From contig JBOHNS010000003.1 in NCBI GenBank assembly GCA_050730835.1, positions 1 through 59,035 on the forward strand: a stretch of DNA of 59,035 nucleotides, in the 5' to 3' direction. Source of the stretch: Candidatus Saccharimonadales bacterium. Its GTDB lineage: Bacteria > Patescibacteriota > Saccharimonadia > Saccharimonadales > UBA4665. The translations under genes were made by a program, and so were the position numbers. Within the stretch, counting starts at the first letter, position 1; the number at the start of each line of letters is the position of its first letter. The notes under the pieces are model-generated. The model saw only the letters and a list, made by a program, of their open reading frames with translations, searched no databases and was not told the DNA's origin. This document shows positions 3,832 through 33,889 of this stretch, one piece after another.

Positions 3832-4078
3832 TAGGTACCTCTATTGTTGGTGCGGCAATCAAAAAGCCTGCCGCTAAACTGATGGCTCGCGCCACCCACA
3901 CCGGTTTCCCGATATGACCATATACAACAGTAGGCCTAACGACAGGCTGTTTGTTGTATATGGATTTGGGGCGACCGTGCCGCCGCAGAGCGACGGTTTA
4001 GGCCTAAGTGGCGTACCACTTATCAGAGATTATAAGTCAATTGGAATGAAATAGTACATAGCTTGGTATTATTAAGGT

Positions 4079-5243: not shown

Positions 5244-5425
5244 GTATCACAGCTGCCGATATAGACTATGAGCAGCTCCGCCGGATACTCGAGCGTGAGC
5301 TTGACCGCCCTGTCAGTATCGACGAGGCCACCGGTATAGGCAAGCACCTGGTAAACGTTTACGAAATCTTGCTTTATAACGGGGGTGAATGTGATAAAAT
5401 AGAAATGGACACAACTAATCGCTAG
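5240..5425 (+). CDS. Small hypothetical protein (element-borne)
   Basis: 61-aa ORF whose start overlaps the upstream stop by 4 nt (translational coupling pattern). Confidence 0.35.
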   Translation: MSITAADIDYEQLRRILERELDRPVSIDEATGIGKHLVNVYEILLYNGGECDKIEMDTTNR

Positions 5426-5526
5426 GACTACCATTGCTTCTTAATGGGGGCAGTTCGTACAGCTTCTAGCGAGGTTGTGTCCGCGAGCTGTCCCCATTAA
5501 GTTGATAGCTCTGAAAGGAGAAAGCA

Positions 5527-7122
5527 ATGGTAGAAGAAGCTGTAAGATGCGTGGTGTTAGCTCGTGTATCTAGCCGCGCACAAGAGGAAGAGGGCTACTC
5601 ACTAGACGCCCAGGAGCGGTTAGCAAACGAGTACTGCCCTAAGAAGCAACTCAAGGTTGCTAAAACATTCAGGATAGCGGAAACAGCGTCAAAAGCAACG
5701 GAGCGGCGGGTATTTAATGAAATGATGAAGTACCTAACAGCTAACCGGATTAAGCAGCTAGTCGTCGAGAAAGCAGACCGCTTAACTCGCTCATTCAAAG
5801 ATATGGTAATGATTGACGACTGGCTAGAAGCTGACGATAGTCGCCACGTACATCTAATCAAAGATAGCTTAGTAATGTATAAGCACTCGCGCTCTCAAGA
5901 CAAGCTGAACTGGGGTGTTAAGGTACTGTTTGCCAAGAACTACACTGATAATCTTCGAGAAGAAGTTTACAAAGGCCGAATGGAAAAGCTAGCGGACGGC
6001 TGGCTACCAGGTAAACCACCATACGGCTATAAGACTATCGGCGAAAAGAAGCATAAAATACACATACCCGACCCTGAAAAAGTACCGCTGCTAATTAAGT
6101 TGTTCGAAAGCTACCTAAACCCTAGTCATTCTTTGACTACCATTACTAGGTACGCAGGTGATATCGGTATACGCACTAGCAAAGGCCGCCCGTACTCGCG
6201 CAGCACTCTAGCCGAAAATATACTGGCTAACCCATTCTACACCGGTAAAAATCGCTGGCAAGGTATAGATTATGACGGTAAGCAAGAGCTATTTTTAGAT
6301 GAAGACTTATGGAGCGCCGTGCAAGCTAAGATGCACCGAAAAACGCCACCGAAATACCAAAAGCACGACCCCGACTTGCGTGGAATTATCCAATGCGAAG
6401 ACTGTGGTGGCACAATTTCCTGGGAGTTTCAAAAAGGCACCTGGTATGGCCACTGCAATCGCTACAAGGGTTGTCCGTCAAAGAAGTATGCTACACAGAA
6501 GATTATCGAAGAGCAGCTGTTTAAGCACTTCGAAAAGCTGTTGTGCCCATCGCCTGAGATTGCCGAGTGGATTATCGAAGCGCTTAAAGCCAAGCACCAA
6601 AATGATATGTACGATTACAGCGCTAGCGTCGAGCAGCTACGCAGCAATCACGACAGCCTGAAGCGCAGTCTGGATATCCTATACGAAGACAGGTTGAGCG
6701 AGCGTATATCCGTTGAAAGGTACGACCAGTTGAGTAAAGAAAAAGTTCAGCAGCAGAAAGAGCTTGAGACGCAAATTACCGGCCTGGCCGACCGCAGCCG
6801 CAAGCAGCTTCACAGAGGCGTTGACGTACTCGAAAAATCACAGCAAGCAGCGGTAGTGTATGCCACCAAATCGCCTGCCGAGAAACGCATATTACTGAGT
6901 GAGCTATTTACCAGTCTCAAACTAGACGGCACTGCATTACACGTTACTTACAACCCATATACAGAGGCGATTTCGAAACGGGTCGAAAGGCACCGCAAGG
7001 TCGTTAGCAACTTTCGAACTAAAGAAAACACCCCCAATAACGGGGGTGATACCGAGCTTGTCACAGCTCTTCGTACGGTTTGGCGGGCTCGACCGGATTT
7101 GAACCGGCGATCTCCTCCGTGA
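5527..7122 (+). CDS. Large serine recombinase (integrase)
   Basis: Resolvase catalytic N-terminus VVLARVSSRAQEEEGYSLDAQ, recombinase domain, zinc ribbon CEDCGG...HCNRYKGC, C-terminal coiled coil. RBS AAAGGAG precedes the ATG. The last 14 codons are encoded by the att core and tRNA-Asp sequence. Confidence 0.9.
   Translation: MVEEAVRCVVLARVSSRAQEEEGYSLDAQERLANEYCPKKQLKVAKTFRIAETASKATERRVFNEMMKYLTANRIKQLVVEKADRLTRSFKDMVMIDDWLEADDSRHVHLIKDSLVMYKHSRSQDKLNWGVKVLFAKNYTDNLREEVYKGRMEKLADGWLPGKPPYGYKTIGEKKHKIHIPDPEKVPLLIKLFESYLNPSHSLTTITRYAGDIGIRTSKGRPYSRSTLAENILANPFYTGKNRWQGIDYDGKQELFLDEDLWSAVQAKMHRKTPPKYQKHDPDLRGIIQCEDCGGTISWEFQKGTWYGHCNRYKGCPSKKYATQKIIEEQLFKHFEKLLCPSPEIAEWIIEALKAKHQNDMYDYSASVEQLRSNHDSLKRSLDILYEDRLSERISVERYDQLSKEKVQQQKELETQITGLADRSRKQLHRGVDVLEKSQQAAVVYATKSPAEKRILLSELFTSLKLDGTALHVTYNPYTEAISKRVERHRKVVSNFRTKENTPNNGGDTELVTALRTVWRARPDLNRRSPP
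7075..7099. repeat. tRNA-proximal att repeat
   Basis: Identical to 1892..1916. Confidence 0.8.
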
Positions 7123-7156
7123 CAGGGAGGCGTGATAACCACTTCACTACGAGCCC
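7081..7156 (-). tRNA. tRNA-Asp(GTC)
   Basis: Minus strand GGGCTCGTAGTGAAGTGGTTATCACGCCTCCCTGTCACGGAGGAGATCGCCGGTTCAAATCCGGTCGAGCCCGCCA: acceptor GGGCTCG/CGAGCCC, anticodon stem CCTCC/GGAGG, loop CTGTCAC. Confidence 0.9.
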
Positions 7157-14228: not shown

Positions 14229-14338
14229 GCCTTGAATTATAGCACAGAAGCATAAGCGTGTACCAGATGGAATATGATAGATGATAGTCAGAGATTTCAA
14301 GTTGGCGTTTTTGCAAACTATCAACTGTAAACTATAAA

Positions 14339-14459
14339 GGACTTTCGCATTTTAAACGCAGTTTGGGATGAAAAACGAGCACCGAAATGTAGGCGTATTA
14401 AAATACGCCGGAATGAGGAGCGCAGGTTTCCGCCCAAAATGTGCAAAATGCGTAAGTCC
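14339..14459. repeat. Long imperfect palindrome, family R2, copy 1
   Basis: ggactttcgcatttt...gcagtttgggatgaaaaacgagc...ggcgtattaaaatacgcc...gcgcaggtttccgcccaaaatgtgcaaaatgcgtaagtcc. The arms pair around the apex GTATTAAAATAC. Related copy at 44870. Confidence 0.6.
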
Positions 14460-14474
14460 TATCAGCCTAAAACT

Positions 14475-24603: not shown

Positions 24604-27600
24604 TCAAAGTATCGGCGGCAAACTGGTTATCGCCTGCACGGTCGGCCCCTTTTTCTGGTTCGGATAAGTCAGCCACACTGACGGCGAGTAGTCAAATTCC
24701 TCGGCAGCAGAATTGCCTGATCCTGAACCGCCAGATCCGCCGCCGCTACTACCGCCTACTGATCCGCCGCCACCTGATCCACCCGGTCCCGAGCCACCCG
24801 ATCCGCCGCCACCAGAACTGCATCCCCCACCATGGTGTCTGCCCCCACCACGAGAAAGTATACATTTAGCCGTAATGATTATAGGATTCATGGATTGGTT
24901 ATTAAGTTGTACGCTGGCAGCCTTGGCTCCAAACGACGGCCCCGCGCCAGGACTAGCCAAATGAATTGTCGAAACATCGCCAGCGCTATCGTAGGCCGTC
25001 CGATGCAGCGTAAGACTAGACGCCACCAGACTGCCATTGACGACCAAATTGGTGTCGCCGCAAGTCTGGGCTTTCGGCGCGCTGCCATCAGGCGGCGGAT
25101 CATAAAACCAGTCGGCCTGGCCAATGCCCGCACAATCATTAATCGTGCCGCCGTTTTCGGCCACATATTGGCCGGCCAATTTGCCGACGTTATTATCGAT
25201 ATTAATATCCCCGCCATCAGTAATTATTTCCAAATTCGGCATTTGCGATAGTTGAGATGTTACGCCGCCGTATGTAATATCGCCGCTAATAGTTATCGCC
25301 CCGCTGGAATATATGGCGATGTTGCAACCGAGCGGTATCGTGGCGCCGGAAATCGTGCCGCCAGCAACTTGATAGGCGTGGTGGCCCGAACAACCGTTGA
25401 TGGCTCCCGTCAGACTGCCGGATGGCAATGTCGTAAGCCCGGGATTGGTCTGACCGGTGGCGTAATAATTGCTGCCGCAATCGCTGGAGCTGGCGCCAAA
25501 ATACCCGCCATAGGGTGAACTATTCGTATTAGAAAACGTCAAACCTGTCGGCGGCCCCGGCCCGCTGTTCTGCGAACTGGCAAATTGATCGATCGCGGCG
25601 GCTGCAAAGGCTGCCAGCTGCGTGCCGGCGCCAGCATAACCGCCAGCCGCGTCTCGGTTAAAAGCCGCAATCGGCGCGCTGCTATTGGTGCACTGAAACG
25701 GCGCGCTGGCCGTGCCGGCTGCCGTCGTAGTCCCGGCCACAGCATCGCCGCCAAAAACTTTCAAATATGGCTCGGCATGAGTATAGGTCGAGCAAGTGCT
25801 GGCCGGCGGCGGATTGGGCTGGGCGCGCATACCAACCGTTGCAACTCTGCCGCCTGCGCTATTAACAGCCAAATGTCCCCACGGCGTTTTGGTGCTAATG
25901 GTGCCGTGCGACGGATTGGTGCTCAAATCAAAACAAACTTTATCACCATATTTCAGCGGCGGCAAACTAACCGGAAAATTCCAACTAACGCCCACCGTGC
26001 CAGTTGCAGTTGAGCCAGTTCCATAAGGCCCATAGGACGATTTTAGATTAGGACTAACCGTGCCGCCATAAGTACCGCTCGCCACAATTGAGCCATTGTT
26101 CGTTTGATGGAACACACTAACCGTCACGTGCGTATCAATGCCACTAACCTCAGAAGCCACGCGCAAATTCTTGCCGGCCGGCCCGTCCTCGGACTCATCA
26201 AACTTAACCTTTACCGAACCGTTATAAGTAGCCTGGGTCGGATTTTCCGGATCATTAATATTAGACGTCCCGTCCTGCGGCACCAAATCATACGTCCGGT
26301 TGAAGCAGGCGTTCATATTGTAGCCATTGGCATCGGACTCCGTATTAACATAATCCGTAGCCGGCGTAACGCCTTGATGCCAGTCGTACCACGGTTGTCC
26401 GGTGTAGGTGTTGGCAAGGTGAGTACAAGTGGCATTCTGGCCGCCACCGCCCGTATCGCCAGCATTGCAATAGGAAAAGTCAAAGACTTGAAAATTAAAG
26501 CCACTAATACAGTTGCCTTGTGCATCAAAAGCTGTGCACTGAAACTGGGTGCTAAAGACATTCGTGGCAGTATAATGAGTATAGTGATGGCAAGTGCTAA
26601 AGGTTCCATTAAGCGTATCGCCGCCGTTACAGGTATAATAATCTGGGCTAGACGATGAATACCAGTTTGTCTTGGTGTAATAGTCTTGGTAGCTAATCGA
26701 AGCTTGGTTATGATCATACGGATAAGTGTTGACAAACGGCGTGTAATCAACCGTGGCGCTGGTGAACGCGCCCTTTGTGCCAGCGGGCGGTTTGGAAGTT
26801 AGCGCCACTGCGCTGCCCCCAATGGCCGTGCTGCTTAAATCATTAACACTATTAATTTTTGTCTGGCCGTCTTTCTTCCGCTGCGTGTATTGATCGTTAG
26901 GAATGGTTGTGGCGCCGCTTTTGCCCGAGTCGTCTGCGAAAGTATTGGGCAATGGAATGGTAACTATGGTATTAGTCGCAATCCTCGGATCCCCCGGGCA
27001 GTTAATAGTCGTTGGCGGCGGTATAGGCGGCATAACATTTCCATTACCTGCTACCAGATTATAACAGAGACCAGAACCACGGCTACCCGGATCGCTTGTA
27101 CCGGTCACGGCTTTATCAATTGCTTCAATGCCGATCGTATTCGTGTTGCCCGGGCCAGTGTTTAATAGGCTTAGATAGCTTGCTAAATTCAGCGAGAAAT
27201 TAGCTGCGGTACTATTACTTTCGGCGGCGGTTGGGGTGCCATTGATATATAGCCTGGCCCAGTCATCTGCGATGCCCTCAAAAGTAGCTCCGCCCGCTTT
27301 GATATCAGCCAAATCTGCTGGAGTTATTGTAAAACTTTCCTGAAACAGGCCTATTCCGTTTGAGTAAACATTATCTGGAGCTCTGGCACCCCTCGGATAA
27401 TTTTGATAGTACAAACCTGGAGCACCTTCACCTGTATACATTTGGTCGACAGGATCTTCACTAGTGCCGTATGGATAATTGCTTGGCCATATTGCTGTAG
27501 CATTATTATAACTAGAGCAACCGTCCAACTTACTGGAAAAGCCAGATCCGACGCCGCCAAGGTTACCTCCGCTTGTGCCCCAACCACCGAGGCTTGTGCC

Positions 27601-27981
27601 GCTACTAAGCCAGGCGCCACTTGATGAACCGGCATCAAAATAGCGATTACTACAATTAGAACTTTGATTAAAAGTATCGCCATTATCTCCGCGGTATTCT
27701 GGTTGATAGGGCAGTATCTTCTGCATTTGACCGCCCGGGCCTGCCACGCCGCCGCATTTGTCGCTACGCGACGGCCAATTTACATTGCCACGTATGGCGC
27801 CGTACTGACTCAAAGAATACCATCGAGCGTGGACGCCGGGATCGCCACTACTTGCCAAAACTTGCGATGACGCAGAAGCAGCCAGAGCCACCGGTGATTT
27901 AACTATTAAACCACCTATCAATGAAACAGCAGCTATAACAAACACTAAGATTAACATGTGGCGACTTTTAGTGAAGGTCAT
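24604..27981 (-). CDS. Very large secreted protein with a PA14-like domain and a Gly/Ser-rich C-terminal tract (putative adhesin)
   Basis: Signal-like N-terminus MTFTKSRHMLILVFVIAAVSLIGGLIVKSPVALAASA. FTITPADLADIKAGGATFEGIADDWARLYINGT resembles PA14. Long G/S/T/N/Y-rich body, C-terminal GGGGSGGSGPGGSGGGGSVGGSSGGGSGGSGSG. Start uncertain (27981 or 27960; longest ORF reaches 28050). Confidence 0.6.
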   Translation of the reverse strand: MTFTKSRHMLILVFVIAAVSLIGGLIVKSPVALAASASSQVLASSGDPGVHARWYSLSQYGAIRGNVNWPSRSDKCGGVAGPGGQMQKILPYQPEYRGDNGDTFNQSSNCSNRYFDAGSSSGAWLSSGTSLGGWGTSGGNLGGVGSGFSSKLDGCSSYNNATAIWPSNYPYGTSEDPVDQMYTGEGAPGLYYQNYPRGARAPDNVYSNGIGLFQESFTITPADLADIKAGGATFEGIADDWARLYINGTPTAAESNSTAANFSLNLASYLSLLNTGPGNTNTIGIEAIDKAVTGTSDPGSRGSGLCYNLVAGNGNVMPPIPPPTTINCPGDPRIATNTIVTIPLPNTFADDSGKSGATTIPNDQYTQRKKDGQTKINSVNDLSSTAIGGSAVALTSKPPAGTKGAFTSATVDYTPFVNTYPYDHNQASISYQDYYTKTNWYSSSSPDYYTCNGGDTLNGTFSTCHHYTHYTATNVFSTQFQCTAFDAQGNCISGFNFQVFDFSYCNAGDTGGGGQNATCTHLANTYTGQPWYDWHQGVTPATDYVNTESDANGYNMNACFNRTYDLVPQDGTSNINDPENPTQATYNGSVKVKFDESEDGPAGKNLRVASEVSGIDTHVTVSVFHQTNNGSIVASGTYGGTVSPNLKSSYGPYGTGSTATGTVGVSWNFPVSLPPLKYGDKVCFDLSTNPSHGTISTKTPWGHLAVNSAGGRVATVGMRAQPNPPPASTCSTYTHAEPYLKVFGGDAVAGTTTAAGTASAPFQCTNSSAPIAAFNRDAAGGYAGAGTQLAAFAAAAIDQFASSQNSGPGPPTGLTFSNTNSSPYGGYFGASSSDCGSNYYATGQTNPGLTTLPSGSLTGAINGCSGHHAYQVAGGTISGATIPLGCNIAIYSSGAITISGDITYGGVTSQLSQMPNLEIITDGGDINIDNNVGKLAGQYVAENGGTINDCAGIGQADWFYDPPPDGSAPKAQTCGDTNLVVNGSLVASSLTLHRTAYDSAGDVSTIHLASPGAGPSFGAKAASVQLNNQSMNPIIITAKCILSRGGGRHHGGGCSSGGGGSGGSGPGGSGGGGSVGGSSGGGSGGSGSGNSAAEEFDYSPSVWLTYPNQKKGPTVQAITSLPPIL

Positions 27982-28441
27982 AACCAAGCGAGGCCAATAC
28001 ATTATTGTTTTTATCATAAACGATTTGAACTTTAGCACCAACTTTGACACCGCTCAAATCTTTAGTCGGAGTAAATAAAAGAGTTTTGGTGTAGACAGTT
28101 TTCGAGTTACTGGTAACTGTTAGCGATTTAGCCGGCTTGGTATTGCTTAAAATAGTAATTTTATGATCTTTTATAGCTGTAATTGTTCCGCCCATAGCTA
28201 GAGCATTTTTGGGCTGTACCGGAACAGTAATATGCTTATACACCGGCGCTGAATGAGCCGGCCGATAAAAAAACTGCCACCAAATCGCCGCGGCCACTAG
28301 CAAAATAACCACCACAAGCGCTGCGCCCAGCAGCCAGAGTTGCTTGGGCGACAAATTCTTAAAAGACCAATGCTGTTTGCGCGGCGGCTTAAAACTGTTC
28401 GACACGACGGCGGATTTGTTTGGTTTTGGTTGGTTAGCCAT
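27968..28441 (-). CDS. Membrane-anchored hypothetical protein
   Basis: 157 aa, one TM (LWLLGAALVVVILLVAAAIWW). Overlaps the start of the large gene downstream. Confidence 0.5.
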   Translation of the reverse strand: MANQPKPNKSAVVSNSFKPPRKQHWSFKNLSPKQLWLLGAALVVVILLVAAAIWWQFFYRPAHSAPVYKHITVPVQPKNALAMGGTITAIKDHKITILSNTKPAKSLTVTSNSKTVYTKTLLFTPTKDLSGVKVGAKVQIVYDKNNNVLASLGYDLH

Positions 28442-28555: not shown

Positions 28556-28595
28556 CTACTTGCTACTTGCTACTTGCTACTTGCTACTTGCTACT
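28556..28595. repeat. (CTACTTG)n heptamer tandem repeat, about 5.7 units
   Basis: Read directly. On the coding strand (CAAGTAG)n encodes the last 5 residues and the stop codon of the toxin gene at 28577..28864. Confidence 0.9.
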
Positions 28596-28864
28596 AAATT
28601 ATAAACTTGGTTATGACTGCCGATGTCTAGAAAAATTATGTAATCCCCAGTTTCTTCATATATCACGCGAATGTCGCCAGCAATAGAGAACGCCCGTTTG
28701 CCATTGATCTTGCCCTTTAAGGCATGATCGTTTAAGGGATAGGCACGTTCGCCGGCTTCAAGGGCAGTAAGGCGGCTAATGTAGGCAGCTCTTAAATTAC
28801 CGTTCGGTGCAATTCGCTTTTTGTAGGATTTGTCAAAGCCTTTACTAAGACGTATCGGTTTCAT
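28577..28864 (-). CDS. YafQ/RelE-family toxin
   Basis: FDKSYKK...LNDHALKGKINGKRAFSIAGDIRVIYEETGDYIIFLDIGSHNQVY. Confidence 0.7.
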   Translation of the reverse strand: MKPIRLSKGFDKSYKKRIAPNGNLRAAYISRLTALEAGERAYPLNDHALKGKINGKRAFSIAGDIRVIYEETGDYIIFLDIGSHNQVYNLVASSK

Positions 28865-29148
28865 AGTTTGTCTAGGTGAGACATCATGTCTTGGACTGTA
28901 TGAAACGGCTTACTGACGTTCTTGGCCTGTTTGGCGTCTTCGGCTGCTTTATTGAGTCTCCTGAGTGCAGCGGGGCTTGGTTCGCCCCAATCATCGTCAC
29001 CAAAGCTAACGATGCGGCCTTCGGCCTCTGCCTGCGCCCAAACCCGAATATAGGCTTGAGCCGAGTCAAATCCGAGCCGTTTGGCTTTGGCCTCTAATTG
29101 TTCGCGGACAGTTTTATCAATTGGTATGTGGAGTATAGTGGTGCTCAT
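28861..29148 (-). CDS. Cognate antitoxin (RHH/DinJ-like)
   Basis: 95 aa, 4-nt overlap with the toxin. N-terminal IPIDKTVREQLEAKAKRLGFDSAQAYIRV. Confidence 0.55.
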   Translation of the reverse strand: MSTTILHIPIDKTVREQLEAKAKRLGFDSAQAYIRVWAQAEAEGRIVSFGDDDWGEPSPAALRRLNKAAEDAKQAKNVSKPFHTVQDMMSHLDKL

Positions 29149-31288: not shown

Positions 31289-31404
31289 GCCTACATTGTA
31301 GGCTATGCAGGCATATTGCGTCAACTGGTTCGAGCCATTTAGAACTTCAATCAAATCCATAAATTACAATGAACTCTCAAAAACTCTAACCTTCCATCTA
31401 AAAA

Positions 31405-31432
31405 CTATAACCTAGAACCTATAACCTAAATC
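31405..31432. repeat. Degenerate heptamer repeat (CTAKAAC)x4
   Basis: ctataac ctagaac ctataac ctaaatc, immediately left of the GC-rich cassette boundary. Confidence 0.7.
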
Positions 31433-31436
31433 GTGG

Positions 31437-33363
31437 ATTGCGACATGTCAGACTTAAATACCCCGAAAGTGGGATACAGACAGGGTCGCAAAACGGTATG
31501 GCTCAAACAGCCGAGTGAATGAGCGCCTGCTCTTATCCCGAGAAAAATCCTCTCGATCAAAGAGCAGGTCGCTCTGATCCACTTTTACGCTGCCCGCGCT
31601 ACGATAGCGCTGACAGCACCTGCTGCACAACACTCTGGCTGACGGCGGCGGAGCCACCGAAAACCTGGATGTTGCGCACCGACTTCGTCGAGCTCAAGTA
31701 GCTCAACGTGTTGGCCGGCAGGGGGACGTTTGGGTTCACCAAGATGATCGGTGAACCTTCAAGCCCGAGTGCCGGGTCGGCGGCAAGCGCGTCTGGGAAG
31801 TCCAACCCTGTGGCAACCCCAATGGTGCTGGGGTTTGGGAAGAACTTCTGGGCGACGGCGACTGCCGTACCAAACCGATCGGTGTCTGCGACACAAATCG
31901 CCTGGGGGTCTGCCTGGCAAGCTTCCCCGCCGACTGCGTAGACTGTGGCTGGCTGGCTGGATGCCAGGTAGGCCGCGGTCACCGCTGACTGGCTGCTGCC
32001 ATTGCTCAACAGGATTGCTGCTTGCTGAGCGACGGCTGCTGGCCCGGCGGACAATGCGTCCGGGAAGTTAAGCCCCGTGGCCAGGAAGTCCACCTTGGGG
32101 TTACCCAACTGCCTAGCAACGGCGACAGCCGTAGCAAAGCGGGTCGGCCCGGACACGCGAACAACTTTGTAGCCCAGCGCCTGGATGGCGTTGGCTACGT
32201 TTGGTGCAAGCGCCGCGTTACCTCCAAGGAGGTACACGGTGCCGCCGGCTGGCAGAACCCGCTGCATCTCAGCCGCTGTGGCTGAGTTGAGCTTGCTAGG
32301 CTCTGTCAACAACAACGGACCTTGCTTGGCCGCAGCCAAAGGCCCGCCGGTCAGGGCGTCTGCGTAGACGTCATTCCTGGCCACAACGACTGACTGAGCG
32401 TTGCCAGCAGCATAGTCGGACTTCGACACAGCAATCGCCGTACCAATCCGGTTGGGCGGCTGGCCGCTCTCCCGCGTGGTCGAGACACCACTTGGCGGCG
32501 CTGGTTGCGTCGTCGAAGTAGTCGGCGGCCCGGTCGTGCTTGTACTGCTCGGCGGTGGTTGCACGACAGTTGTCGTCGTGCTCGCCGGCGGCGCTGGCGG
32601 CTGTGTCGTCGACGTGGTCGACGGCACGGTGGTCGTTGTCGATCCCATCGTGGTCGACGTGGTCGACGTTGACGTCGTGGTGGTTGTACCACCGCCGCCA
32701 CAGTCTGTCAGCCCGGGTAGCGTGAAAAAGCCACCTAGACTGTAGTCCGTGTCGTCGCTTGGCAGGCGGTTCTGCCCGAGCCCGATTCCCCAACTTGGAG
32801 AAATGGTCTCATTGACGGGATACGAACTCGACAACGAGAACGAAAACCTCCCCTTAGCGTCAATGGAAATATGCTGCGTATTTCCAGTTGACACATAGAA
32901 AAAGTGATACGTTGCCACCTGCGGGCCAGGCAGGTTACTCACTACACCGGAACCGCTGATGGTGCCGGCGCAGTCTCGCATTACCGTGTAGGTAACGCTG
33001 TAACTGCCGGTGCCATCCGAAAAGGGCGTACTGGCCGTCACGGTAGCGCTCGGCTCACTGGCGCTGGCTGCGCCGGAGGACACAAACCCTCCGACTGCTA
33101 GCGTAGCAGCCATGATTGTTGCGGTGGCGGGAAGCCATCGTCGCCTCAAGAATGAGAACATTTAAGTTCTCCTTTCGTTTAGCTTCGGCTTATCGCCTGC
33201 ACCGCAAATCCCAGGGTGGGATACGGACACAAGATTCTTAATAAATTAATTAAACCGCTTTTTAGATAAACTTAAACAATAAAGCAGCCCATAAAAATCC
33301 TCTGTCCGCATCCCAAACTTGGGAAAACCATATATTTTGCGAAAATTAGTCTGACATGTCAAT
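31437..33363. other. GC-rich single-gene cassette bounded by imperfect inverted repeats (putative horizontally acquired insert)
   Basis: Left end ATTGCGACATGTCAGACT...GTGGGATACAGACAG (31437..31483). The reverse complement of the right end reads ATTGACATGTCAGACT...TTGGGATGCGGACAG (33363..33302). The interior is visibly much more GC-rich than the flanks. Confidence 0.5.
31599..33161 (-). CDS. Secreted protein with a Thr/Ser/Pro-rich linker and three cell-wall-binding repeat 2 (CWB2)-like repeats
   Basis: Signal peptide MFSFLRRRWLPATATIMAATLAVGGFVSSGAASA. Linker TTTTTSTSTTSTT...QPPAPP. Three repeats of the type (D/N)R(I/F)(G/A)TA(I/V)AV(S/A)...(A/V)(V/A)(T/R)(G/N)..(F/Y)(P/A)DAL(S/T/A).GP.A..(Q/E)..P(L/I)(L/I)L, each containing DAL plus a Gly-Pro segment. 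Confidence 0.7.
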   Translation of the reverse strand: MFSFLRRRWLPATATIMAATLAVGGFVSSGAASASEPSATVTASTPFSDGTGSYSVTYTVMRDCAGTISGSGVVSNLPGPQVATYHFFYVSTGNTQHISIDAKGRFSFSLSSSYPVNETISPSWGIGLGQNRLPSDDTDYSLGGFFTLPGLTDCGGGGTTTTTSTSTTSTTMGSTTTTVPSTTSTTQPPAPPASTTTTVVQPPPSSTSTTGPPTTSTTQPAPPSGVSTTRESGQPPNRIGTAIAVSKSDYAAGNAQSVVVARNDVYADALTGGPLAAAKQGPLLLTEPSKLNSATAAEMQRVLPAGGTVYLLGGNAALAPNVANAIQALGYKVVRVSGPTRFATAVAVARQLGNPKVDFLATGLNFPDALSAGPAAVAQQAAILLSNGSSQSAVTAAYLASSQPATVYAVGGEACQADPQAICVADTDRFGTAVAVAQKFFPNPSTIGVATGLDFPDALAADPALGLEGSPIILVNPNVPLPANTLSYLSSTKSVRNIQVFGGSAAVSQSVVQQVLSALS

Positions 33364-33556
33364 GTGCGAACCTTGGGCGTCTTGATGGACAGCAACGCGA
33401 GCGATAAAAATCTTTGATTTTTATCGAGCTCAAAGCGGTGTCCGACGTTCCAATGTTGCTATTAAGCAACTTTAGTGCAGTTTGGCCAAAAAGTCAACCT
33501 CCCATAAATCTGAATCACAAAACCCCCCATCGGCGAAATTTGAATATTTTGATTGC

Positions 33557-33889
33557 CTAAAGCGGAGTGAAAATCAAACGTATGGCGGCCAGCACTGCAA
33601 CAAGTTTGGCAGTTTCCAGCGTGCCGTAAATTTGGCTGACAACCGACGGGTCGGCGGTAAATAATTTGTCGGGGCGAGCGTAGCTTTTGACCGGCAGGCT
33701 GCCGCTATGAAAATCTTTGGGCGCCAGCAAAATTGGGTTAGAACTGGAATAAGTTTTGGAGGTAATTTGGCACAAAATTATATCGCCAAAGTCGCCAATG
33801 GCGACAATTAGCGCCGGGCGCAGTTTCTTGATCGTCAAATCGGAAAACGGAAACGCGATCGAAACGACTTGGCCTATTTTAAGCTTGCC
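33557..33889 (-). CDS. mazF: MazF/PemK-family toxin
   Basis: GQVVSIAFPFSDLTIKKLRPALIVA...ILCQITSK...ARPDKLFTAD. ATG at 33889 overlaps the antitoxin stop. Confidence 0.75.
   Translation of the reverse strand, partial: GKLKIGQVVSIAFPFSDLTIKKLRPALIVAIGDFGDIILCQITSKTYSSSNPILLAPKDFHSGSLPVKSYARPDKLFTADPSVVSQIYGTLETAKLVAVLAAIRLIFTPL

Follow-up and report, generated by a model that had tools for sequence, protein, structure and literature searches.

The window analysed here is a 59,035-nt stretch of a contig from an uncultured bacterium of the Candidatus Saccharimonadales, and its subject is the segment 31437–33363. This segment carries, on the minus strand, a single gene for a probably exported protein with three cell-wall-binding repeats of the CWB2 type. 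The gene lies in DNA of raised G+C content (GC), is bounded by imperfect inverted repeats and is situated within a run of toxin–antitoxin genes. Horizontal acquisition of the gene is well supported by its composition, its codon usage and the affiliation of its nearest homologs with another phylum.

The coding sequence spans 31599–33161 on the minus strand and encodes 520 residues, as established from the open reading frame (ORF), Pfam and homologs. The remaining ORFs of the segment are overlapping alternative-frame ORFs, which are usual in GC-rich DNA. An earlier reading made from the letters alone (hereafter the sequence-only reading) had proposed a single gene encoding a signal peptide, an N-terminal domain, a linker and three CWB2 repeats, and both the gene count and the architecture held. 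A signal-peptide-like N-terminus, MFSFLRRRWLPATATIMAATLAVGGFVSSGAASA, was recognised by eye in the translation (residues 1–34; 33060–33161, minus strand). It is followed by an orphan N-terminal domain, predicted to be beta-rich and delimited by homology and structure searches (residues 35–157; 32691–33059, minus strand). Next comes a Thr/Ser/Pro-rich linker of ~78 residues, evident from translation and composition, with a GC at second codon positions (GC2) of 0.87 (residues 158–236; 32454–32690, minus strand). The C-terminal moiety comprises three tandem CWB2 (PF04122) repeats, assigned through Pfam and homology (residues 237–520; 31602–32453, minus strand). The Pfam family CW_binding_2 (PF04122) matched in three stretches with an E-value of 5.1e-46 and 155.5 bits, against a gathering cut-off of 24.9. 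Structurally solved CWB2 proteins of Clostridioides difficile were likewise matched in sequence, namely Cwp8 (5.8e-20), Cwp6 (1.5e-19) and the high-molecular-weight SlpA (~1e-16). In the record of the 59-kb contig, the protein is annotated as a 321-residue truncation (31599–32561) starting from an internal GTG at residue 200, while a contig of the Logan assembly carries the 520-residue call; the DNA is identical and the gene call alone differs.

The CWB2 triple is a non-covalent wall-polymer anchor in the Cwp proteins of C. difficile. The product of the gene is probably exported and would bind a cell-wall glycopolymer through its CWB2 trimer. The trimer might anchor the protein to the wall of the bacterium itself or target that of an actinobacterial host, and a role in attachment is plausible. 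For the N-terminal domain (~120 residues), a word-based search found no homolog, a full phmmer search of 1.84 billion representatives returned repeat-protein artefacts only, and no paralog was found within the window. An AlphaFold2 single-sequence model of this domain was beta-rich but of low confidence (predicted local distance difference test score of 60.5), and a Foldseek search with it against the PDB gave no match better than an E-value of 0.036.

The jump in base composition that had been noticed by eye was confirmed by calculation, with a GC per 200-nt interval of 0.575–0.67 over 31500–33200 against 0.395–0.50 in the flanks; all other kilobases of the window are at or below 0.566. The GC values of the gene at the first, second and third codon positions (GC1/GC2/GC3) are 0.562/0.595/0.697, compared with means of 0.529/0.398/0.525 for the other 48 genes of the window. 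The GC3 of the latter has a standard deviation of 0.063 and a maximum of 0.656, which places the CWB2 gene 2.7 standard deviations above the mean. The codon-usage analysis that the sequence-only reading had suggested as a check found the gene to have the most atypical synonymous usage of all 49 genes. Its amino-acid-conditioned fit to native synonymous usage was the worst (−1.326 per codon), and the log-likelihood difference between native and actinobacterial usage was 0.056 per codon, compared with 0.392 for the next lowest gene (n = 49). This held along its whole length: the signal, the N-terminal domain, the linker and the individual CWB2 repeats, six sub-regions in total, were all under the minimum of 94 native 120-codon chunks. 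Hence, the whole gene is foreign, and a chimeric gene made of a native N-terminus fused to a foreign CWB2 module is ruled out.

The host was assigned through the gene for a 725-residue histidine kinase adjacent to the CWB2 gene. The GTDB representatives matched by this kinase are almost only metagenome-assembled genomes of Candidatus Saccharibacteria/Saccharimonadales, at 37–49% identity, and its best near-full-length homolog in a collection of 5.8 billion proteins is 48% identical. These homologs identify the owner of the window as a deep-branching Saccharibacterium of the Candidate Phyla Radiation (CPR)/Patescibacteria, from a lineage without a close sampled relative, in accordance with the earlier guess at a CPR bacterium. 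For comparison, 63 related loci were fetched around kinase homologs, 57 of which were counted as Saccharibacteria-type.

A search with the CWB2 protein gave 3648 matches. The named ones among the top 120 are Actinobacteria (Acidimicrobiales, Actinomycetes, Acidothermaceae and Motilibacteraceae) plus one Dormibacteria, with 46–57% identity over the C-terminal 50–60% of the query. The nearest relatives, from Acidimicrobiales and other Actinobacteria, are 50–57% identical. This outcome, which agrees with the actinobacterial style attributed to the protein beforehand, supports assignment of the CWB2 module to the actinobacterial type. Homolog genes inspected in their genomic context (n = 2, on three contigs) have a GC3 of 0.84–0.89, and the contigs have a GC of 0.67–0.70. 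Plasmid records contained two actinobacterial matches, from Embleya and Euzebya, at 38–42% identity, and plasmid and phage records together contained Firmicutes matches at 25–33%. At the nucleotide level, blastn searches yielded only a 90-nt low-complexity match to Rhodococcus among plasmids and nothing among phages. No CWB2 match was present in the 63 loci around kinase homologs. In a literature search, the 15 best-ranked of 264 matching papers included none pairing Saccharibacteria or Patescibacteria with CWB2 or PF04122.

The gene is framed by nested repeats. The left outer inverted repeat found by the repeat scan, ATTGCGACATGTCAGACT (18 nt; 31437–31454, plus strand), includes the 8-nt palindrome GACATGTC. 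The right outer inverted repeat from the same scan (33346–33363, minus strand) reads ATTGACATGTCAGACT on the minus strand at 33348–33363, and its positions 33352–33363 constitute a 12-nt perfect palindrome, TTGACATGTCAA. The two outer repeats agree at 16 of 18 positions with a 2-nt CG indel and have a perfect core (13/13), as GACATGTCAGACT lies at 31442–31454 and its reverse complement at 33348–33360, with no further copy in the window. The inner modules contain GGGATRCRGACA, which occurs exactly three times in the window, at 31471 (plus), 33218 (plus) and 33303 (minus). The left inner module b(L), AAATACCCCGAAAGTGGGATACAGACA (31456–31482, plus strand), is a direct repeat of module b(I), AAATCCCAGGGTGGGATACGGACA (33206–33229, plus strand), with 20 of 27 alignment columns matching; the GC-rich DNA begins to the right of b(L) and stops to the left of b(I). 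Module b', GGGATGCGGACAG on the minus strand (33303–33315), pairs with 33218–33229 across 73 nt of 26% GC. This pairing of a third repeat copy had been foreseen and turned out to be part of a larger palindrome at 33200–33342. A further, c-like module, GTCGCAAAACGGTATGG (31485–31500, plus strand), is an inverted copy of 33327–33342, but sits on the inner rather than the outer side of the b module. The corresponding motif, TCGCAAAA(N3)TATGG, with an 8-nt exact core TCGCAAAA, is thus inverted at both ends; relative to the GGGAT module, its left copy is internal and its right copy external.

The significance of the ends was assessed with dinucleotide shuffles of the boundary regions. The strict terminal-repeat score was equalled in 1 of 3000 shuffles, and lenient scores in 13 of 3000 and 27 of 2000. 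The proposed imperfect inverted-repeat ends thereby stand; the outer inverted repeat is real, but not overwhelmingly so, and it is remarkable only for its position at the composition boundaries (p ~1e-3). A second 13-nt perfect inverted repeat, GGCTGCTTTATTG, has one arm in an antitoxin gene (28942–28954) and the other in the leader loop upstream of the CWB2 gene (33277–33289), 4.3 kb apart; it is probably due to chance and illustrates the background rate. Elsewhere in the window, an intergenic element at 14338–14460 is enclosed by inverted repeats of 16 nt, which are 94% complementary and separated by 91 nt. It has an 11-mer, AGTTTGGGATG, in common with the leader of the CWB2 gene, but its candidacy as a second family member was rejected as chance, the alignment score being 22 against a shuffle mean of 22.5.

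Base composition also separates the repeats from the gene. The GC of the outer repeats is 0.33–0.44, that of the spacers 0.30–0.43 and that of the 73-nt loop 0.26, while native intergenic DNA has 0.42. The non-coding DNA next to the gene reaches 0.54 in the 116 nt 3' of the stop codon and 0.50 in the 44 nt 5' of the start. The compositional boundary therefore coincides with the inner GGGAT modules and not with the outer repeats, and the foreign GC-rich DNA extends over ~31483–33205. Because the repeats are AT-rich like native intergenic DNA and the GC-rich DNA is limited by the inner repeats, the repeats are native-like and were probably not brought along with the gene from a high-GC donor.

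Upstream of the gene, folding revealed a 143-nt imperfect palindrome in the 5' leader (33200–33342, minus strand), in which c' and b are followed by the AT-rich loop and then by b' and c. The RNA fold is more stable for the minus (coding) strand, with −52 kcal/mol (z −5.6), than for the plus strand, with −33.8 kcal/mol (z −4.1). A motif scan located a sigma-70-like promoter site directed toward the gene, TTGACA-17-CAAAAT, with 10 of 12 matches (33334–33362, minus strand), and its −35-like hexamer (33357–33362) lies within the right outer repeat. A Shine–Dalgarno sequence, GGAGA, is present 6 nt upstream of the ATG (33168–33172, minus strand). A 6-bp hairpin, GAGAAC/GTTCTC, spans this sequence and the first codons (33154–33171); it could affect translation initiation, and was scored as terminator-like on the plus strand. 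At the other end, an imperfect hairpin, CCTGCTCTT...AAGAGCAGG, is found 31 nt past the stop codon (31526–31568, minus strand) and is a possible terminator of the gene, although it has no T tract. Rfam over 31300–33600 gave nothing meaningful, the best match being WsnRNA46 with 27.8 bits against a gathering threshold of 65.3.

The surroundings conform to the earlier description of a toxin–antitoxin island. Type IV pilus genes lie at 16–23 kb of the window, and the stretch from these to the kinase operon holds a gene for a 1148-residue protein, the toxin–antitoxin run and the CWB2 gene. Minus-strand throughout, the run comprises YafQ/ParE-like and MazEF genes and three of the PIN type, with the CWB2 gene among them. 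Nothing in the pilus-to-kinase region was common to the 63 related loci, and no synteny was found downstream of the kinase. The 1148-residue ORF (24604–28050, minus strand; GC2 0.55), between the pilus genes and the toxin–antitoxin run, lacked relatives in the 63 loci and matched nothing in Pfam or NCBIfam; its product may be a lineage-specific surface protein. Two heptamer arrays were observed. One, a tandem array of approximately six CTACTTG units (28556–28602), overlaps the 3' end of the YafQ-like toxin gene. The other, CTATAAC CTAGAAC CTATAAC CTAAATC (31377–31436), is a loose heptamer-like array flanked by the left outer repeat and by the beginning of the operon for a ribbon-helix-helix (RHH) antitoxin and a PIN protein, and it may be the operator or promoter of that operon. 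Farther off, a full-length match to the Rfam LOOT RNA (RF03000) occupies 3881–4004 on the minus strand, with 73.2 bits against a gathering score of 46.4.

Taking these observations together, we lean, with a confidence slightly on the favourable side of even, toward a horizontally acquired single-gene islet in the Saccharibacterial chromosome that is embedded in a resident palindromic element. The foreign GC-rich DNA (~31483–33205) would lie inside an AT-rich, native-looking element of nested modules, with GGGATRCRGACA as the inner and ATTG(CG)ACATGTCAGACT as the outer one. On this view, the arms of the resident element, which resembles a hairpin or a miniature inverted-repeat transposable element (MITE), make up the inverted repeats, which would not be donor DNA. 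The element might either have carried the gene or have received it; as an alternative to carriage, the gene could have entered by illegitimate or site-specific recombination after DNA uptake. Transcription probably starts from the TTGACA-17-CAAAAT site in the right arm and would proceed through the 143-nt structured leader. As to the route, the epibiont may have taken up DNA of its host; Saccharibacteria are naturally competent, grow on Actinobacteria and require adhesins for epibiotic growth (PMC10633639). Composition, codon usage, domain architecture, the taxonomy of the nearest homologs and the repeats with their positions are established, whereas the direction and route of transfer, any former mobility of the element, use of the promoter and an actinobacterial host wall as the ligand are inferred.

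Several points weigh against this interpretation. About half of the GC excess stems from amino-acid composition (Ala/Gly/Thr/Pro/Ser) and not from codon choice, because GC2 itself is raised (0.595, z 3.7). The closest homologs are only 50–57% identical, no donor was identified, and the direction of transfer follows from taxon breadth alone. The GC3 of the gene (0.697) is well under that of the homologs (0.84–0.89), so either the donor is unsampled or of moderate GC, or the gene is partly ameliorated. As for the repeats, the b(L)/b(I) direct repeat is marginal, since it was equalled in 102 of 2000 shuffles, and the window contains five perfect inverted repeats of at least 13 nt with arms 200–3000 nt apart. 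The module order differs between the two ends, which no simple model explains. No gene-free copy of the palindromic element was found in the loci or metagenome collections searched, and this is a single locus with nothing to compare it with. Finally, proteins with a CWB2 trimer at the C-terminus are normally anchored by it to the wall of their producer, so that host binding is not the default reading of the function.

The strongest rival to the resident-element interpretation, which we hold to be unlikely yet worth serious attention, is that the whole of 31437–33363 is a mobile insertion cassette, a non-autonomous transposon moving as a single unit, with terminal inverted repeats, subterminal repeats for transposase binding, a built-in promoter and a passenger gene, and mobilised by a transposase from elsewhere in the genome. 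The anatomy is apt. The terminal inverted repeats match at 16 of 18 positions and a second inverted module lies inside each end; there is one passenger gene and no transposase; an inward-facing promoter-like site resides in the right end; and the surrounding zone is lineage-specific, variable and rich in toxin–antitoxin genes. The sequence-only reading had called the segment a cassette, and had reported that no transposase is present. The latter was borne out for the segment and its neighbourhood, the sole recombinase of the window being 24 kb away, and the description of the anatomy likewise stood. The mobile unit that the term implies did not find the same backing, as neither a target-site duplication nor a second copy nor an empty site was encountered. 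The flanks, ...AATCGTGG| and |GTGCGAAC, show no in-register direct repeat. No second copy of the ends was found in the window, including the vicinity of the serine recombinase, in the 4.5 kb beyond the window start, in the 63 related loci, in JGI metagenomes or in IMG/VR, and the combined pattern of terminal inverted repeat and b module had 0 matches in JGI metagenomes and 0 in IMG/VR. The b...b' hairpin pattern had a single metagenome match (2865–2972 of locus L071), a perfect palindrome with which a high-GC contig terminates; it was rejected as a copy of the element and attributed to chance or an assembly fold-back artefact. The CWB2 protein, the RHH antitoxin and MazF were each found on one Logan contig only and no empty site was seen; comparison of orthologous sites met with relatives at most 48% identical in the kinase and with no shared synteny on the kinase side. 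Moreover, no cognate insertion sequence is known, and the Logan assembly is unbroken at the ends, where a multi-copy repeat longer than the assembly k-mer would have caused a break. Of the three inner modules, one is oriented wrongly for a cassette, and the order of the modules is unlike between the ends.

We judge it improbable that the gene is instead an old native resident whose GC derives mainly from an Ala/Gly/Thr/Pro-rich product, the palindromes then being operators, a leader structure or an inverton, in which b and b' would flank a phase-variable promoter segment. Its GC2 of 0.595 explains roughly half of the excess, its GC3 of 0.697 is only 0.04 above that of the top native gene, some of its codons are native-like (e.g. 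TTG for Leu at 0.34), and GACATGTC is palindromic, as operators are. However, the gene is the clearest outlier in synonymous usage of the 49, in every sub-region, no Saccharibacterial homolog appeared among the named top matches or in the fetched loci, and the proximal 3' and 5' non-coding DNA is enriched in GC, too. An inverton in particular would have the anatomy seen directly upstream of the gene, with a 12/13 inverted repeat around an AT-rich 73-nt segment. Yet no invertase adjoins it, no promoter-like site reaching 9 of 12 matches lies inside the 73-nt segment, and the outer repeats are inverted in their non-palindromic parts, whereas two similar promoters would give direct repeats.

It is decidedly improbable that the repeats are hybrid attL and attR sites left by site-specific integration through a serine (or other) recombinase acting in trans. 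Integration by large serine recombinases leaves inverted-repeat-like attL and attR and no target duplication, and here the flanks are inverted without duplication. In addition, the outer repeats, when joined, rebuild an attB-like palindrome of ~36 bp (ATTGCGACATGTCAGACT/AGTCTGACATGTCAAT), imperfect direct repeats of 24–27 nt surround the GC-rich DNA, and the window encodes a large serine recombinase at 5527–7122. However, that enzyme is 24 kb off, adjoins a tRNA-Asp gene and is most simply part of another element, and nothing resembling the repeats lies near it. The outer and inner repeats are spaced 16 nt apart at the left end but 32 nt at the right, which does not suit symmetric half-sites, and the att reconstruction is itself derived from general knowledge of large serine recombinases. 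The analogy for such a recombinase-less element would be the pseudo-SCC (staphylococcal cassette chromosome) elements. The recombinase itself (plus strand) has 531 residues with Resolvase and Recombinase domains, and shows weak similarity to CcrB, XisF and CcrA, in all cases far under the curated cut-offs. The 3' end of its gene overlaps tRNA-Asp (7081–7156, minus strand). Upstream of the recombinase gene, small genes devoid of known domains occupy ~5 kb and are accompanied by two inverted repeats (5409–5552); this region is probably an integrated element.

A bolder variant of the resident-element interpretation, which we regard as speculative and give little credence, views the AT-rich nested palindrome as a resident gene-capture and expression site of the CPR lineage. 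Host ORFs taken up by competence would be inserted at GGGATRCRGACA, leaving the 24–27-nt imperfect duplication, and would be transcribed from the outer-arm promoter; the captured wall-binding module would then recognise the actinobacterial host. Such a site would be similar in function to the attI/Pc platform of integrons, but bears no relation to it in sequence and lacks an integrase next to it.

An assembly chimera, with actinobacterial sequence wrongly incorporated in a Saccharibacterial contig, would fit the restriction of the sharp GC change to one gene in data from a single sample, but is very improbable. Over a stretch of 14,594 bp that includes both junctions, the window and the 16,956-bp Logan contig SRR27067709_5451 are 100% identical, although the contig probably derives from the same reads, so that this represents agreement between assemblers and not independent sampling. 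Furthermore, the gene has an AT-rich leader, a Shine–Dalgarno sequence and a codon usage intermediate between the two worlds, and two chimeric joins that place exactly one intact gene between them are unlikely. Lastly, an integron cassette was rejected, since inspection of the junctions revealed no GTTRRRY/RYYYAAC cores, no IntI was found, no tyrosine recombinase occurred among the called genes looked up on contigs covering part of the 59 kb, and no comparable attC-like palindromes separate the other toxin–antitoxin units.

Apart from type IV pili and a few adhesins, little is known of how CPR bacteria, and Saccharibacteria in particular, recognise and hold their hosts (PMC10633639). As Actinobacteria are the phylum of the known hosts of cultivated Saccharibacteria, the CWB2 gene is a concrete and clonable candidate for a determinant of host specificity, and, coming from a single locus, it is a lead rather than a finding. 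The locus also illustrates cleanly how, in a very small genome, a foreign gene can sit within native DNA that is bounded by repeats and bears a promoter. Should more such loci appear, they might represent a route for domesticating acquired DNA, which for the same reason is offered as a lead only.

Comparison with known systems starts with the integron cassettes, which the locus resembles in its single gene without a recombinase and in its ~140-nt imperfect palindrome that folds better on one strand. It also resembles them in its co-oriented toxin–antitoxin neighbours and in its location downstream of a promoter-bearing structure. The palindrome, however, is 5' of the gene here and not 3'. Mobile insertion cassettes (MICs), such as MIC231 of Bacillus cereus, contain a passenger gene between terminal inverted repeats and no transposase. 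The locus likewise has a passenger without a transposase between inverted repeats, but lacks a cognate insertion sequence, a target duplication and a second copy among what was found, and its composition suggests a gene placed inside a resident element and not one travelling with its own ends.

On the protein side, the closest counterparts are the actinobacterial cell wall-binding repeat-containing proteins with a CWB2 triple, which have three repeats as well and are 50–57% identical over residues 237–520. These proteins and, more distantly, Cwp/SlpA of C. difficile have the same layout of a variable functional domain combined with a CWB2 triple. The actinobacterial homologs pair CWB2 with glycoside-hydrolase, SpoIID, Kelch or Big-type domains, whereas the present protein is Saccharibacterial, its N-terminal partner is without a detectable relative, and the GC3 of its gene is 0.697 and not 0.84–0.89. 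CWB2 proteins are also present in C. difficile phages, as seen in the search of phage records. The endolysin CD16/50L of one such phage has a wall-binding domain that is reported to derive from host CWB2 and binds the wall polysaccharide of the host (PMC9045149). In both cases, a parasite of Gram-positive cells possesses a CWB2-type module related to wall proteins of the host lineage; there, it is a phage with a lytic partner domain, while here it is a cellular epibiont with an orphan partner domain and putative binding. Overall, the locus belongs to known kinds, as a horizontally acquired surface-protein gene, possibly in a MIC-like setting.

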